In this document: in pieces, positions 83 to 6,935 of the stretch
How positions within the stretch are numbered: the first letter of the stretch is position 1
Layout: each line of letters begins with the position of its first letter
Origin: Candidatus Iainarchaeum sp.
Lineage (GTDB): Archaea; Iainarchaeota; Iainarchaeia; Iainarchaeales; CSSED10-239
Direction: 5' to 3'
Length of the DNA stretch: 6,935 bases
NCBI GenBank assembly: GCA_028700115.1
Contig: JAQVTI010000022.1
Coordinates: 1 to 6,935 of the forward strand
Translations under genes and position numbers: made by a program
The notes under the pieces: generated by a model
Databases searched by the model: none
What the model saw: only the letters and a program-made list of their open reading frames with translations
Told to the model about the DNA's origin: nothing

Positions 83-652
83 TTAAATTAAATTATTAAT
101 CTGCTCTTTTATTTTAATGATGGTATCAAAAAATTCGTAACCACTAAAAATTATTTTTTCACCGGGCTTAAATTTTTTTAATATTTTATTTTTTATACAT
201 ACCCCCTTTGCTGTGTGTTGCTTGTGAGTTATAGAGACCCTTATATTTTTTAATTCTCCAAAAATGTCATAACATACTTCGTCTTTTTTTAAATTCTTAA
301 TGTTTGCAATCTTTTGACGATATTTATCCTCCCATAAATTATATATTTGTGTTAAAATTATATTTGTTAGAATTTGGTGTCCACCAGATTCAAATTTTTT
401 ATATATTTCATCAGTAGTTTCAGAAGCAATTAATGGGAGTCCTTCACACACATAATAAATAGGAATCGGATTTTCACAATTTGGCCATATTTTTTTTATT
501 ATCCAAGGATATTTTACTGGTTTTACAAAATCTAAATATACATTTGTTGCTGAAATATAATTTAAATATAATTTAAGTAACTCATCAATTTCTAATAGGA
601 ATTCTGATTTAATCATTGATAATTGTCTTTCAGCAGACATATTTTCACACAT
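83..652 (-). CDS. Hypothetical protein with C-terminal HEPN-like Rx4H signature; candidate partner or antitoxin of the upstream RnlA-like::RNase HIII gene
   Basis: 189-codon ORF starting 9 nt after the stop (662-664) of the 598-aa ORF on the same strand, so probably co-transcribed. No clear SD; an alternative ATG lies at 640. The C-terminal half reads ...ILTQIYNLWEDKYRQKI...FGELKNIR138VSITH143KQ (R codon 239-241, H codon 224-226). This is an R-x4-H spacing after helical-looking sequence, as in HEPN RNase active sites. I recognise no other family. Confidence 0.6.
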   Translation of the reverse strand: MCENMSAERQLSMIKSEFLLEIDELLKLYLNYISATNVYLDFVKPVKYPWIIKKIWPNCENPIPIYYVCEGLPLIASETTDEIYKKFESGGHQILTNIILTQIYNLWEDKYRQKIANIKNLKKDEVCYDIFGELKNIRVSITHKQHTAKGVCIKNKILKKFKPGEKIIFSGYEFFDTIIKIKEQINNLI

Positions 653-661
653 TAATAATTT

Positions 662-2458
662 TTATTTATCAATAATCTCTTTCACATTTTTAAAATTCAT
701 TTTAATATAATTATCTAAATCATGATCAGATAATTTAGATTCCTGCTTTAATTGTTTAATAAATTCGATTACATTTTGACCAGCACCCTTAGGTAAAACA
801 CAATCTATATTTTCTCCTAACGCTTTAATTTCATAAAGAAATTGGGCCCTAGCAATTACAGAAGCCACAGCTACTGAAATATTACTCTCGGCCTTTGGAA
901 TCTTTATTAGATGTATTCTTTTGCCTAAGTTCATCAAACTTTTCTCAACTAATCCATTATCTTCAAATTGATCAGCAATTACTGTTTCACAGTTTATATT
1001 CTGTTTAGACAGCTCAGTTAACAAATTTTCTAAAGATCTCGCATGTTCCCAAGCCAATAATTTATTTAAATTTCTTATTTTACTATATAACTCATTATAT
1101 TTTTTAGGTTTTACGGTTACATTTACCCAATAGATTTCTTTTTTAGTTTTTATTAAATCGAATAGTTCTAATATCTTTTTATCGTTTATTTTCTTAGAAT
1201 CTTTAATTCCACTATTAATTAAAAATGTAATGAAATCTTTATCTCCAGGAACATATGCCGCCACAGTAACTAATGGTCCAAAAATATCTCCTTTCCCAGA
1301 TTCATCTATGCCTATTGCACTAAAAGTATCTGCTTGATTTAATTTCTTATTTTCATCAAATTGAATTATATAAACAGATAATAAATCTCTCATTATTTCT
1401 AAAATATTATAAATAATTTTTTCGGCATCTTTAAAATCAATAATCGGTGGCTTTATAGGATCTGAATGAAATAACTCGTTTCTACTTTTTTGCCAAGTAG
1501 GCCACAATAAAGAAAATAATGTTGAATTAGTTCTATTTATCGTAGGAAATATATTTCTTAATCTTTCAATATTATTATTATCTTTTAAATAAGCACCAAT
1601 TTTATTATTTTTTATAGATTCTGAAGACAGATAAAAATCTTCAGAAAGCTCTCCTACATTATACAATAATTTTAATAAAAAACCTTCATACACAATACCT
1701 AATGGTCGCACTATTTGAGCATAATTTAAAATAGAATCTTTTTTATCTGAAACGATTTGGTATATAGATAACATATCTAATAATTCTACCGTATCATTTG
1801 AATATAAAAATTCAATTAATGCTCTTAATTTATATTTCTCTACTAATCGCTCGTGATATTTAAACATTTTCTCTTTAAATTCATCATAATTTATATCTAT
1901 TTCATTATGATTTTCTTCAAAAATTAATTTTAATGTATTATAGTTTTTTTCAGTACGTTTATTTATTATAAAATCCATAACATCTTTCAAATCTTTGCTT
2001 TCCTTTCCTTGGATATTTATAGTCCCATTATTATAAATTGTAATTGTTGTTGTTAAAAATTTATAATTCTTCTGGCCGTTGAATAGTTGTTCTTTAAATT
2101 CTTTAACTTTTAAAAAATCCTCAATTTTTTTTAAAATTAAATTGTCTAATTTAGAATTAAAACTTACAGATATACTTATCATTCTAGTGCCTTTTTCTAT
2201 TTTAATATTATTTTCTTTAAAATTAGATTCTATTTCTAAACGATTATTTTTTATTTGAGAGAAATCAATATTAGAAGTATTATCTTTTTTCGAATAAATA
2301 CGAATATATCCACATATTTCTTTATTTTTATGCACTAAAATTTGAAATCCATTATTTATTGGATTTGATTTTACAATAGTAAATGGCTGTTTTATTTTAC
2401 TTTTAATATAATTTTCGTCAACCTTAAATAGAACATTCATATAATTACACCATTTCAC
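662..2458 (-). CDS. Multidomain nuclease: two TBP-like (RNase HIII N-domain/RnlA NTD-NRD-like) modules + HEPN (Rx4H) domain + RNase HIII-type (RNase HII family) catalytic domain
   Basis: 598-codon ORF with a GTG at 2458; ATG at 2440 (MNVLFK...) is an alternative start. aa ~95-165 contain TITIYNNGTINIQGKES, matching the RNase HIII N-terminal TBP-like motif (Bacillus: ITAYQSGKVLFQGK). aa ~40-70 (GYIRIYSKKDNTSNIDFS) look like a second, more divergent copy. aa ~205-365 contain VRPLGIVYEGFLLK and WQKSR326NELFH331SD (R codon 1481-1483, H codon 1466-1468), an RN-x3-H HEPN motif. aa ~380-575 match RNase HIII throughout: GIDESGKGDIFGPLVTVAAYV, IKDSKK, ADQF, PKAESNISVAVASVIARAQFL, LPKGAG. The putative DEDE tetrad is intact: D385/E386 (1301-1306), D496 (971-973), E524 (887-889). 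Confidence 0.85.
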   Translation of the reverse strand: MKWCNYMNVLFKVDENYIKSKIKQPFTIVKSNPINNGFQILVHKNKEICGYIRIYSKKDNTSNIDFSQIKNNRLEIESNFKENNIKIEKGTRMISISVSFNSKLDNLILKKIEDFLKVKEFKEQLFNGQKNYKFLTTTITIYNNGTINIQGKESKDLKDVMDFIINKRTEKNYNTLKLIFEENHNEIDINYDEFKEKMFKYHERLVEKYKLRALIEFLYSNDTVELLDMLSIYQIVSDKKDSILNYAQIVRPLGIVYEGFLLKLLYNVGELSEDFYLSSESIKNNKIGAYLKDNNNIERLRNIFPTINRTNSTLFSLLWPTWQKSRNELFHSDPIKPPIIDFKDAEKIIYNILEIMRDLLSVYIIQFDENKKLNQADTFSAIGIDESGKGDIFGPLVTVAAYVPGDKDFITFLINSGIKDSKKINDKKILELFDLIKTKKEIYWVNVTVKPKKYNELYSKIRNLNKLLAWEHARSLENLLTELSKQNINCETVIADQFEDNGLVEKSLMNLGKRIHLIKIPKAESNISVAVASVIARAQFLYEIKALGENIDCVLPKGAGQNVIEFIKQLKQESKLSDHDLDNYIKMNFKNVKEIIDK

Positions 2459-3500: not shown

Positions 3501-4259
3501 ATGTCAGTTAAAGATTATATGCAAGTTTGTATTAATGGTCATAAGATAAATGGAATGACTTCCCGCCATCCCGAAAATAATAAAGATTTTTGCCCTAAAT
3601 GCGGTGCAAAAACAATTGACTCCTGTCCAAGGTGTGGTGCATTAATTGATGGAGATATAATTGTTAGTGCTGCACATTTCCCTAAATCAGTTTATGATTA
3701 TTGCGGAGAATGTGGTAAACCATTTCCCTGGGCAAAAAACAAAGTGCAAATAAATAGTATAGATAATACAAAAAAGGGAATGACTATAAATCTTAGAAAA
3801 CAACAAGACGAATTATCAAAATACAATACAATTTATGATCAATTAGAAATACATCCAGAAATAAAAAATGTTTCTGAATCTTTATTTAAAACGGAACATT
3901 ATTCTGAAGCAATAGAAGCTTCATTTAAGCAAATTATCTTATTAATTAAAGAAAAAACTAATTACCCAAAAGATAAAAATAATGAATCCGAATTAGATGG
4001 GGCAAAATTAATGCGCGAAGTTTTTAATTTATCTAAAAAAACTCCTCTATTAAAACTTAATAGTCTTGTAACTCAAACAGACATAAATGAACAAGAAGGA
4101 TTTATGAATATTTTCGTTGGAGCAGTCCAAGGAATAAGAAACCCAAAAGCACACGCTAATTTAAATTTAAAAGATCCTCAAAAAGCAATCGAATATATTC
4201 TATTTGCCAGTTTACTTGCAAGAAAAATTGATGAATCAAAATTAAATAAAAAAGAGTAA
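3501..4259 (+). CDS. Zinc-ribbon (DUF2321-like) + HEPN (TIGR02391/Ymh-type) protein
   Basis: 252-codon ORF. The N-terminus reads C10-INGH...FC31PKC34GAKTIDSC42PRC45GALIDG...YC68GEC71GKPFPW. These paired CxxC knuckles follow the pattern I recall for DUF2321. The C-terminus reads EAIEASFKQI...FMNIFVGAVQGIR213NPKAH218 (R codon 4137-4139, H codon 4152-4154), the RNPxAH signature of the Ymh/TIGR02391 HEPN family. Only a purine-rich weak RBS (agaaagaagaaatATG). Confidence 0.8.
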   Translation: MSVKDYMQVCINGHKINGMTSRHPENNKDFCPKCGAKTIDSCPRCGALIDGDIIVSAAHFPKSVYDYCGECGKPFPWAKNKVQINSIDNTKKGMTINLRKQQDELSKYNTIYDQLEIHPEIKNVSESLFKTEHYSEAIEASFKQIILLIKEKTNYPKDKNNESELDGAKLMREVFNLSKKTPLLKLNSLVTQTDINEQEGFMNIFVGAVQGIRNPKAHANLNLKDPQKAIEYILFASLLARKIDESKLNKKE

Positions 4260-4325: not shown

Positions 4326-5264
4326 TTATAAAAATCCTTTCAATTCATAAATCTTATATTCTTTATATTCCCAATCTATTTGCTTTTCTGTAAATTTCTC
4401 TCTCCAATAGGTGTGGCTATTTCTAACAGTTGAATCTCCAACCAGTATAGAATTTGTATCTGCTTTACTTTGAATTTTTACAACAATATTCATTGTTTCG
4501 CCTATTAAATCTTTGTGTTGTTTATTTTCACCACCAATTATTATAGATGTAACTTCACCAGAATCTAAACCGATTCTAAACTGGAGTTCTGGATATCCTT
4601 GAGATTTTAAAATTGGATTCATTATTTTTTCTATAAATAATTTCATAGTGCTTGCACAATAAACGGCATTGTCAGTCATACCTTGAAAATTCGGTTCTGG
4701 AAAATAAGCAATAATCCCGTCTCCTAAATATTTTAAAACAAATCCCTGGTAATTAGTAACTATATAATCCATTTCTCTAGAAAAAAGAGATATTAATTTT
4801 ACATTTTTATCAGGAGCCAAATTTTGACTTAATTTTGTAGACCCTTTTAAGTCAATAGATAATATTGTATATTTACGCGTATCATTGTTTAATTCTGATA
4901 AAAAATCTTCTGATTTATCTACGGGATTATAATTTTGAACCTCAATGTTTAGAAAGTGTTTTATATAATCTATTCTAGGTAATAATAATTTTTCTATGTC
5001 GTTTTCTTGTGGAGGATTATATCTTAATGGTAATTTGCCTAGATTTTTCATTAATTTATTATATACTTCTTTTTCAAGTATATGAATTTCATCAAATTTA
5101 TCAAACAAATACCATTCTCCATCAATTAATTTTCGGTCATACCTTTTAGGATCTGGCTCAAATCTAAATGTAACAATACCCGTCTCTTCATCTAAATTTT
5201 CTATGTGCTGTATAAAATCCATCCGGCCTATTTTATCAGATAATGGCATAATATCCCCCCACAT
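4326..5264 (-). CDS. Class III nucleotidyl (adenylate/guanylate/pyrimidine) cyclase-domain protein with unknown ~130-aa N-terminal domain
   Basis: 312-codon ORF. aa ~131-310 carry the class III cyclase motif series. These are YTILSID138LKGST (first metal Asp, 4851-4853), FVLKYLGD182GIIAYF (second metal Asp, 4719-4721), LQFRIGLDSGEVTSIIIGG, and DLIGETMNIVVKIQS (Asn retained; the usual Arg is Lys), then ILVGDST. ATG at 5264 lies 8 nt after the upstream stop. An alternative start is M6 at 5249, preceded by the G-rich TGGGGGGATATT. Confidence 0.8.
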   Translation of the reverse strand: MWGDIMPLSDKIGRMDFIQHIENLDEETGIVTFRFEPDPKRYDRKLIDGEWYLFDKFDEIHILEKEVYNKLMKNLGKLPLRYNPPQENDIEKLLLPRIDYIKHFLNIEVQNYNPVDKSEDFLSELNNDTRKYTILSIDLKGSTKLSQNLAPDKNVKLISLFSREMDYIVTNYQGFVLKYLGDGIIAYFPEPNFQGMTDNAVYCASTMKLFIEKIMNPILKSQGYPELQFRIGLDSGEVTSIIIGGENKQHKDLIGETMNIVVKIQSKADTNSILVGDSTVRNSHTYWREKFTEKQIDWEYKEYKIYELKGFL

Positions 5265-5640: not shown

Positions 5641-5868
5641 CTAATGGTTTCCAAAACTGTGTGTTCTTTTGTGGCATTCTTGACAAAGAATTTTACAATT
5701 CTCTAACTTATCTGATCCGCCATCAGAAACTGCTTTTATATGGTGTGCTTCCCAACCATACTCACTTTCTTTGCCACGACTTTCCCATAAAAGTTGTTTC
5801 TTACATTTTTCACATTTCCCATCAGCTCTATCCCAAGCCAGTTTTATTGTTGTTTCATCAAATGACAT
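5641..5868 (-). CDS. Mini HNH endonuclease (75 aa)
   Basis: The sequence is GKC-EKC...GWEAHHIKAVSDGGSDKLENCKILCQECHKRTH. It has a CxxC...CxxC zinc knuckle pair and an H-N-H core (HH...N...H). The ORF track starts at GTG 5877. ATG at 5868 is better spaced from the GGAG (taGGAGtgtgaagaatATG) that overlaps the upstream stop. Confidence 0.8.
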   Translation of the reverse strand: MSFDETTIKLAWDRADGKCEKCKKQLLWESRGKESEYGWEAHHIKAVSDGGSDKLENCKILCQECHKRTHSFGNH

Positions 5869-5881
5869 ATTCTTCACACTC

Positions 5882-6142
5882 CTAGTTTATTTTTCTCCCA
5901 TTTTTCTTTACATCAGCAACAACTCTGCTATAGCTACGTCCAACTGGTTTTATAGCAACAGATTGTCCTGCAATCTTTTTTGTAAGATTTTGCTTTGCAG
6001 AGGTATAACCTCTTTCACCCTTATCAGGGGCATCTACATTTGCTAGACGAATATAGTTAGATCCATTTACTTTAGTTCCAACTTTAAAAGTATCGCCATC
6101 AATTACTTGTGTTACTTTCCTATGTACAATTTTATTATTCAT
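5882..6142 (-). CDS. Truncated/minimal staphylococcal nuclease (SNase/thermonuclease)-like OB-fold protein (86 aa)
   Basis: Strong RBS (AAGGAG at 6151-6156, 8-nt spacer). VIDGDTFKV...IRLANVDAPDKGE...GYTSAKQNLTKKI...GRSYSRVVADVKKNGRKIN aligns by eye with SNase AIDGDTVKL...FRLLLVDTPETKH...YGPEASAFTKKMV...YGRGLAYIYADGKMVN. The protein ends where the SNase C-terminal helices would begin. Confidence 0.7.
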   Translation of the reverse strand: MNNKIVHRKVTQVIDGDTFKVGTKVNGSNYIRLANVDAPDKGERGYTSAKQNLTKKIAGQSVAIKPVGRSYSRVVADVKKNGRKIN

Positions 6143-6563: not shown

Positions 6564-6935
6564 TTATTTAATATCACCCTTTTGCAAATTCTCTAAATTT
6601 TGTAATGAATATGATCCTTCAAAATATTTTTTATAAACACTCACATCTTTTCTTTCATTAAAATTAGCCAATGTAAAAAGAGAAGTGCTCTGATCTTTGT
6701 TCTTTTCTGTAAAATATATTTGATCATGCCTTAATCCAGAAACCTTGAAATTTAATAAATCATAACAATGAGTAGTATATATTACTTGTGCAGATTTATT
6801 TTGATCACCATTAATATATTCATTTAAAAAACAAACTAGCTTTGGATGTAAACTTGATTCAATTTCATCAATTACTAAAATTCCCCCTGCATTTATATGA
6901 TGAACTATAGCTGCAGCTTTTTCAATAAATTCAAT
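6564..6935 (-). CDS. ABC-type/AAA_21-like ATPase, C-terminal 123 codons (5' part outside the window)
   Basis: Hand translation of the minus strand in frame with the right edge gives IEFIEKAAAIVHHINAGGILVIDEIESSLHPKLVCFL...QVIYTTHCYDLL...KGDIK*, with stop at 6564-6566. ILVIDEIESSLHP is a Walker B/D-loop and TTH is the H-loop, as in the SMC/ABC-like AAA_15/AAA_21 ATPases common in defence systems. No fused TOPRIM or nuclease domain follows. Confidence 0.7.
   Translation of the reverse strand: MEFIEKAAAIVHHINAGGILVIDEIESSLHPKLVCFLNEYINGDQNKSAQVIYTTHCYDLLNFKVSGLRHDQIYFTEKNKDQSTSLFTLANFNERKDVSVYKKYFEGSYSLQNLENLQKGDIK

Follow-up and report, generated by a model that had tools for sequence, protein, structure and literature searches.

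Prokaryotic immunity and toxin-antitoxin systems employ HEPN RNases as some of their commonest effectors, and many HEPN families are still without a name. We analysed a 6,935-bp window from Candidatus Iainarchaeum sp., which is a complete contig (JAQVTI010000022.1) of a 0.96-Mb genome with 22% G+C. The small-subunit rRNA of this genome scored best with the archaeal model (1365 bits). The composition of the contig matches that of its genome bin (26% G+C, tetranucleotide r = 0.987), and its genes make up a compact defence island in what appears to be a DPANN-like archaeon. It contains a small gene, encoding a protein of 189 amino acids (aa), that lies directly downstream of a gene for an RnlA-like::RNase HIII fusion and on the same strand. 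An earlier reading of this DNA, made from the letters alone (hereafter the sequence-only reading), had pointed to this arrangement as that of rnlAB. It had proposed that the small protein could be a cognate antitoxin, a second HEPN subunit pairing with the large protein, or a degenerate HEPN decoy. The order of the genes, the distance of 9 nucleotides (nt) between them and a size exceeding that of the ~120-aa RnlB were all confirmed. As developed below, however, we lean towards regarding the small protein as an autonomous, latent HEPN-type RNase, a second RNA-targeting effector beside the fusion, and not as a dedicated antitoxin of the RnlB type.

The first ATG of the small gene begins 9 nt past the TAA of the 598-aa open reading frame (ORF) upstream. 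A second in-frame ATG at position 640 would give a 185-aa product with a gap of 21 nt to the upstream gene, and 185 aa is the length called in 13 of the 13 database copies of the small protein. Between positions 640 and 661 the start is ambiguous, ATG 652 and ATG 640 both being kept in L002, a contig from a close relative. A conserved GTGA about 5 nt ahead of ATG 640 could be a weak Shine-Dalgarno-like element. The features of the window are collected in Table 1.

Table 1. Features of the window, with the small gene and the fusion gene first and the rest of the island below.
Feature	Position	Strand	Remarks
RnlA-like::RNase HIII fusion	662..2458	minus	598-aa ORF; probable start ATG 2440, 592 aa
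Rx4H codons of the fusion (R-N-E-L-F-H)	1466..1483	minus	helical domain; sole Rx4H of the fusion protein
Small gene, HEPN-like family member	83..652	minus	ORF, 189 aa, ATG start; 185 aa from ATG at 640
Intergenic spacer, 9 nt	653..661	minus	stop of the 598-aa gene to the first small-gene ATG; spacer and both ATGs also in L002
Rx4H codons of the small gene (R138-V-S-I-T-H143)	224..241	minus	C-terminal end of predicted helix 129-143
Ex3R codons of the small gene (E108-D-K-Y-R112)	317..331	minus	in the W-E-D-x-Y-R signature; predicted helix 92-118
Orphan gene, 231 aa	2609-3304		rest of the defence island
DUF2321 zinc-ribbon + Ymh-type HEPN	3501-4259		rest of the defence island
PycC-like cyclase	4326-5264		rest of the defence island
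HNH	5641-5877		rest of the defence island
SNase-like ORF, short	5882-6142		rest of the defence island
AbiLi-like ATPase fragment	6564-6935		rest of the defence island

Two TBP-like domains, a helical domain that carries the motif SRN[ED]LFH and, finally, the catalytic domain of RNase HIII make up the upstream protein. The last of these matched TIGR00716 rnhC (E = 3.4e-51), PF01351 (6e-29) and RNase HIII in the PDB (1e-22). The upstream protein gave no Pfam RnlA match, and its residues 1-369 were modelled at low confidence (predicted local distance difference test, pLDDT, 63.6). In a Foldseek search with this model, the top seven PDB matches were nevertheless all E. coli RnlA (6y2p, 4i8o and others, E values from 1.4e-6 to 6.8e-5), followed by TBPs; the RnlA matches span 375-391 columns with TM-scores below 0.3. 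The SRN[ED]LFH motif is invariant in the three known homologues of the fusion (alignment A4). These results support the identification of the upstream protein, as the sequence-only reading had it, as a predicted RnlA-like "two-headed" nuclease of the TBP-TBP-HEPN-RNase HIII type. HEPN domains of the RNase LS family have already been recorded as fused to RNase H-type or TBP-like domains (PMC3710099). Among 5.8 billion clusters, only two homologues of the fusion gene were found, one on L002 (68% identity) and one on a second contig, L003 (50%).

R138-x4-H143 is the sole Rx4H of the 189-aa protein, and the peptide in which it was first noticed, FGELKNIRVSITHKQ, is indeed present. When the protein was shuffled, Rx4H arose in 4.7% of the sequences and Rx4-6H in 13%, so that the motif alone is weak evidence; we take it as real because it is conserved in relatives, not because of its mere presence. 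A word-indexed homology search with the 189-aa protein recovered the protein itself alone. When 1.84 billion cluster representatives were scanned exhaustively with HMMER, 270 relatives emerged at E<=1e-3, mostly of 180-220 aa, most alignments spanning residues ~78-188 of the window protein. In an alignment of 62 sequences of this family (alignment A1), R138 was invariant (60/60 relatives) and H143 was kept in 58/60 (97%). The other most conserved positions were W107 (98%), R112 (98%), Y104 (90%) and E108 (83%), together with G132 and I141, which were also conserved at 90% or more. The family consensus reads I-Y-Q-x-W-E-D-x-Y-R ... F-G-D-L-R-x-x-R-N-S-I-I-H-x-x-G-x-A. Among the 150 best family matches, Rx4H was found in the same local context in 138 and the W-E-x-x-Y-R signature in 135. 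The residue following the arginine in the 138 matches that keep Rx4H was usually N (52), R (31), H (26) or Q (10), that is 119/138. The motif was unchanged throughout the 13 near-identical copies of the window protein. Judged by their sequences, these proteins of about 200 residues form a widespread but sporadic family that is unnamed and has no curated model.

An AlphaFold2 model of the 189-aa protein, computed with A1 as the alignment, was of high quality (pLDDT 92.4, predicted TM-score 0.85) and mostly helical. Its long helices comprise residues 7-47, 92-118, 129-143 and 171-186, and an insert at 48-91 contains a small beta hairpin. HEPN domains are four-helix up-down bundles in which helix 3 ends with an Rx4-6H motif and helix 2 often contains Ex3[KR] (PMC3710099). 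In the model, Rx4H forms the last six residues of the third long helix, and E108-x3-R112 lies within the second, in agreement with the HEPN layout of Ex3[KR] (PMC3710099). The R-x4-H spacing seen by the sequence-only reading thus stood up as a conserved signature of HEPN type, at the predicted end of helix 3 and accompanied by Ex3R in helix 2.

Profile comparisons gave weak links to curated HEPN families. The window protein gave no match to PF18735, HEPN_RiboL-PSP (gathering threshold 28.4 bits), and a minority of its relatives did at E<0.01: PF18735 was matched by 6 of the 62 (best 1.8e-6) and PF18737, HEPN_MAE_28990, by one. Scattered sub-threshold matches concerned HEPN_Cthe2314, KEN domain, CARF_HEPN, RTasHEPN and Cas13a models, and no other superfamily consistently. 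For comparison we aligned 15 bona fide RiboL-PSP-HEPN proteins collected from Bacteroidota genomes. When A1 was aligned to this set with hhalign, R138 and H143 fell on the RNxIAH motif with a score of 26 (P 0.005, probability <10%); the reversed template scored 17.7 and 30 column shuffles at most 13.7. At E<1e-3, a hidden Markov model (HMM) built from the 15 proteins matched 21/150 family members; those of the matches that were listed centre on the motif region. We conclude that the small protein probably belongs to the HEPN superfamily, as a distant and unnamed family and not as a member of PF18735. Its nearest curated relative, as far as these comparisons indicate, is the RiboL-PSP-HEPN / AbiD-AbiF-like group.

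We then considered where the family occurs and what surrounds it. Family loci were searched with a 15-sequence subset of the alignment, and the resulting sample comprised 13 genome and 80 metagenome loci, about 90 in all. The 13 genome loci fell in at least nine bacterial phyla: Bacteroidota, Verrucomicrobiota, Patescibacteria, Proteobacteria, Desulfobacterota, Atribacterota, Chlorobiota, Chloroflexota and Nitrospirota. The family was found in 3 of 300 sampled Bacteroidota genomes and in none of 214 other genomes of the window's phylum, where the fusion protein was likewise absent. No family member was seen on viral contigs with the search patterns used. None of the 13 genome and 80 metagenome loci contained an RNase HIII or RnlA-like gene. 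An all-versus-all BLAST of the neighbours revealed no recurrent neighbour apart from duplicate contigs. Pfam assigned 86 neighbours to 57 different families, none present in more than three loci and none of them RNase_HII. Many neighbours were of defence type, among them Type ISP restriction-modification, AccI, Mrr, HNH, TIR, McrB-like AAA_5 and HicB; others were housekeeping genes. Members of the family are single-copy accessory genes without a recurrent partner, often beside restriction or defence genes.

The fusion/small-gene pair was observed solely in the window and in L002. The L002 contig stops 77 nt past the fusion stop and shows the same 9-nt spacer followed by the first 22 codons of the small gene. 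On L003, the 50%-identical fusion gene is followed at 4 nt by a hydrophobic ORF of membrane type (1815-1949) and not by the small gene. P0006, which at 39% identity is the nearest relative of the small protein, is encoded behind a gene for an 85-aa membrane protein and not behind an RnlA-like gene. Conserved co-occurrence with the upstream gene, the lack of which the sequence-only reading had named as evidence against its proposal, was thus largely lacking, the pair being absent at both L003 and P0006. The regions upstream of the fusion gene are unrelated between the window and L002. On L002 (214-1365), a 206-aa ORF of coiled-coil appearance overlaps the fusion start by 4 nt, and a 150-aa membrane-type ORF lies upstream of it.

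The two adjacent genes (83-2458 in the window, 1362-3205 on L002) have diverged to very different extents. In the 90% cluster of the small protein, each of the 13 members shares 94-95% identity with the window copy, whereas the cluster of the fusion protein has one member. The cluster members begin with MSVEEQLSMIKSEFILEI, as does the small-gene fragment on L002, which belongs to that set. The fusion proteins of the window and L002 are 68% identical overall and 58-79% identical by domain. At the nucleotide level, identity between window and L002 is ~70-80% in the fusion gene and 59% near its 3' end, and it reaches 89% in the stretch from the junction into the beginning of the small gene. This asymmetry can be read in two ways, either as a much stronger constraint on the small gene or as its movement as a separate cassette. 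Both are easier to reconcile with an autonomous function than with a toxin-antitoxin interface under co-evolution.

On the reading of the small protein as an autonomous latent RNase, it would be a metal-independent endoribonuclease, a predicted activity that in HEPN RNases leaves 2',3'-cyclic phosphate, and probably a homodimer in which the two Rx4H motifs face each other, as in other HEPN enzymes. Latency would probably be imposed by the protein's own N-terminal half, and infection or stress would probably switch the RNase on. The small gene, presumably co-transcribed with that of the RnlA-like::RNase HIII fusion, would add a second effector directed against RNA.

Several observations weigh against this reading. 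The window protein matches no HEPN model in Pfam (none at E<=0.1), NCBIfam, PADLOC or PHROG, and every link to curated HEPN families is weak and centred on the motif region. HEPN domains characteristically have a polar residue (N/D/H) directly after the arginine; the window protein has Val139 there (RVSITH), and its near-identical copies have V or I. In its subclade, polar residues of the N-terminal half are also replaced (D, 90% in the family, by N31; H, 75%, by A76; R, 90%, by K86; N, 68%, by F87), although this part of the family alignment is less reliable; these losses make the catalytic competence of the window copy less certain than that of the family. L002, the only further contig on which the junction can be seen, has the same close spacing of 9 nt, and no candidate antitoxin is common to the fusion genes of the window, L002 and L003, which leaves an inhibitory role open. 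In the model the main insert separates helices 1 and 2, as against helices 2 and 3 in canonical HEPN domains. Foldseek searches of the 189-aa model against PDB and BFVD returned no HEPN structure and only coiled-coil-like noise (best E values 1.2 and 0.17, respectively). The profile and structure searches that the sequence-only reading had called for thus brought weak RiboL-PSP-HEPN links via the relatives of the protein, without a structural counterpart.

The absence of a HEPN match despite a model with a pLDDT of 92, the departure of the insert from canonical topology and the weakness of the profile-profile link, driven by about 30-60 columns, would all be expected if the family were helical but not HEPN. 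The conserved Arg/His and W-E-D-x-Y-R would then serve, for example, nucleic-acid or ligand binding, and the likeness to HEPN would be convergent. We consider this unlikely. Three independent hallmarks coincide, namely a helix 3 that ends in Rx4H, a residue after the arginine that is polar in most members, and Ex3R in helix 2; weak matches recur to several HEPN models and to no other superfamily. Furthermore, Foldseek is generally known to perform poorly on divergent all-helical bundles.

Other explanations accept the HEPN fold and give the small protein a role tied to its neighbour. Overall, an inhibitory or heteromeric HEPN-HEPN role appears fairly unlikely to us. In the inhibitory form, a HEPN-fold protein would have been recruited as the antitoxin of the fusion, capping or pairing with the cleft of its HEPN dimer and being lost on infection like RnlB, a labile protein that neutralises its toxin by binding it directly. 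The position of the small gene directly behind an RnlA-like gene, as in rnlAB, and the retention of the same junction in L002 would suit such a role. So would the lack of an alternative conserved neighbour as antitoxin, the upstream regions of window and L002 being unrelated, and the loss of N-terminal polar residues in the window subclade could signal a changed function. However, the catalytic-type R/H pair and Ex3R are fully kept under strong conservation, and elsewhere the family stands alone, none of about 90 loci showing a toxin-like partner. The N-terminal replacements (residues 27-87) are common to the window protein and P0006, with the C-terminal Rx4H/Ex3R core intact in both; as P0006 has no RnlA-like neighbour, the changes are not tied to pairing. 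The 50%-identical fusion homologue has another gene downstream, and a 95%-identical small protein would have to suit fusion proteins that are just 68% identical. There is also no similarity to RnlB. We therefore hold an inhibitory partner to be rather unlikely. The proposal of a cognate antitoxin fared poorly on the same grounds, since the protein differs from RnlB in sequence and predicted fold and its family has no recurrent partner; with its intact R/H and Ex3R core, the protein is unlikely to be a degenerate decoy.

Instead, a composite active RNase might be built from the fusion's HEPN domain together with the small HEPN protein, or the small protein might activate the fusion. HEPN active sites form across dimer interfaces, both proteins retain Rx4H and their genes are tightly linked. 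RnlA, moreover, requires canonical HEPN dimerisation for its activity (PMC8266594). On the other hand, either gene family is found without its counterpart, the two neighbours differ strongly in how far they have diverged, and their HEPN-like regions share no specific similarity (family HMM against the fusion protein, E 0.38). Such a co-subunit seems very improbable to us. We likewise regard it as quite improbable that a normally solitary HEPN protein has here been co-opted as the regulatory partner of the fusion, antitoxin or subunit, contacting it HEPN to HEPN across the catalytic dimer interface. If such pairing were true, it would, to our knowledge, give the first example of two HEPN domains facing each other in a toxin-antitoxin-like pair, and this in a DPANN-type archaeon.

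Comparison with known systems helps to place the small protein. Like RnlB and LsoB, it is a small protein whose gene directly follows an RnlA-type gene in the same orientation, but RnlB and LsoB have ~120 aa and lack what the small protein bears, its own conserved nuclease-type motif, and its family is unlinked to RnlA-like genes elsewhere. The fold of RnlB is a four-stranded mixed sheet between two helices (PDB 6y2p; PMC8266594), in contrast to the mostly helical model of the small protein. No sequence match in the PDB, RnlB included, was found for the small protein at E<=10, with either a single sequence or a profile, and the RnlB chain of 6y2p was not among the Foldseek matches of its model.

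With RiboL-PSP-HEPN the family of the small protein shares a length of ~200 aa, a mostly helical character and R-[NH]-x-I-[AV]-H near the C-terminal third, and both hhalign and the purpose-built HMM bring the two motifs into register. RiboL-PSP-HEPN (PF18735) has been described as distantly related to AbiD/AbiF (PMC3710099); the literature searched held no experimentally characterised RiboL-PSP-HEPN protein. Unlike that family, the window protein and most of its relatives remain below the Pfam threshold, and they have their own W-E-D-x-Y-R and a conserved N-terminal half, with no L-PSP fusion or ParB operon. AbiV, about 200 aa long, AbiU2 and AbiJ resemble the small protein in being of stand-alone HEPN type, without a dedicated antitoxin gene and in variable or defence regions. 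By analogy, they may serve as a model for the proposed latent RNase triggered by infection and for a defence role of the small protein. All three have been classed as HEPN (PMC3710099). The PADLOC Abi models gave no sequence match to the small protein, and AbiV is typically without the canonical histidine (PMC3710099), which the small-protein family retains. HepT of the HEPN/MNT system (HepT/MntA) is likewise a small dimeric Rx4H HEPN RNase, abundant in archaea and bacteria. In this case the differences are that no MNT nucleotidyltransferase adjoins the small gene, that none is among the neighbours listed for the family loci, and that there is no match to HEPN-T Pfam families.

The family as now delimited comprises at least 270 cluster representatives with the signature W-E-D-x-Y-R followed by G-D-L-R-x-x-R-x-S-I-I-H. 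This signature provides annotators with a handle, and the family is a small and simple candidate for single-gene defence directed against RNA. One more HEPN family in a defence island will not surprise specialists; the interest lies in a clean family definition, in the possible HEPN-HEPN pairing and in the asymmetry of divergence. For the rnlAB analogy the locus carries a caution: a gene in the antitoxin position is insufficient as evidence, because the partner found there does not resemble RnlB and comes from a family that is not associated with RnlA-like genes.

Two candidate associations within the family loci were examined and rejected. Ion_trans_2 is the sole neighbour type that occurs more than twice, upstream of the family member in each case (L005:5037-5789, L011:4330-5790 and L100:2144-3790), two of these genes also having pentapeptide repeats; with three loci only, such a channel is too rare to be a partner. 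A HEPN gene directly upstream is not the rule either, as about 80 non-redundant loci contain one clear case, on L012, and a possible one on L089. On L012, which comes from a bacterial genome (5112-6561), a bona fide RiboL-PSP-HEPN gene (286 aa, 28.7 bits, RHSIVH) precedes the family member by 7 nt, and the product of this upstream gene also gives a weak match to the family HMM (2e-4). Two related HEPN genes stand in tandem here and may mark the point at which the family branched off.

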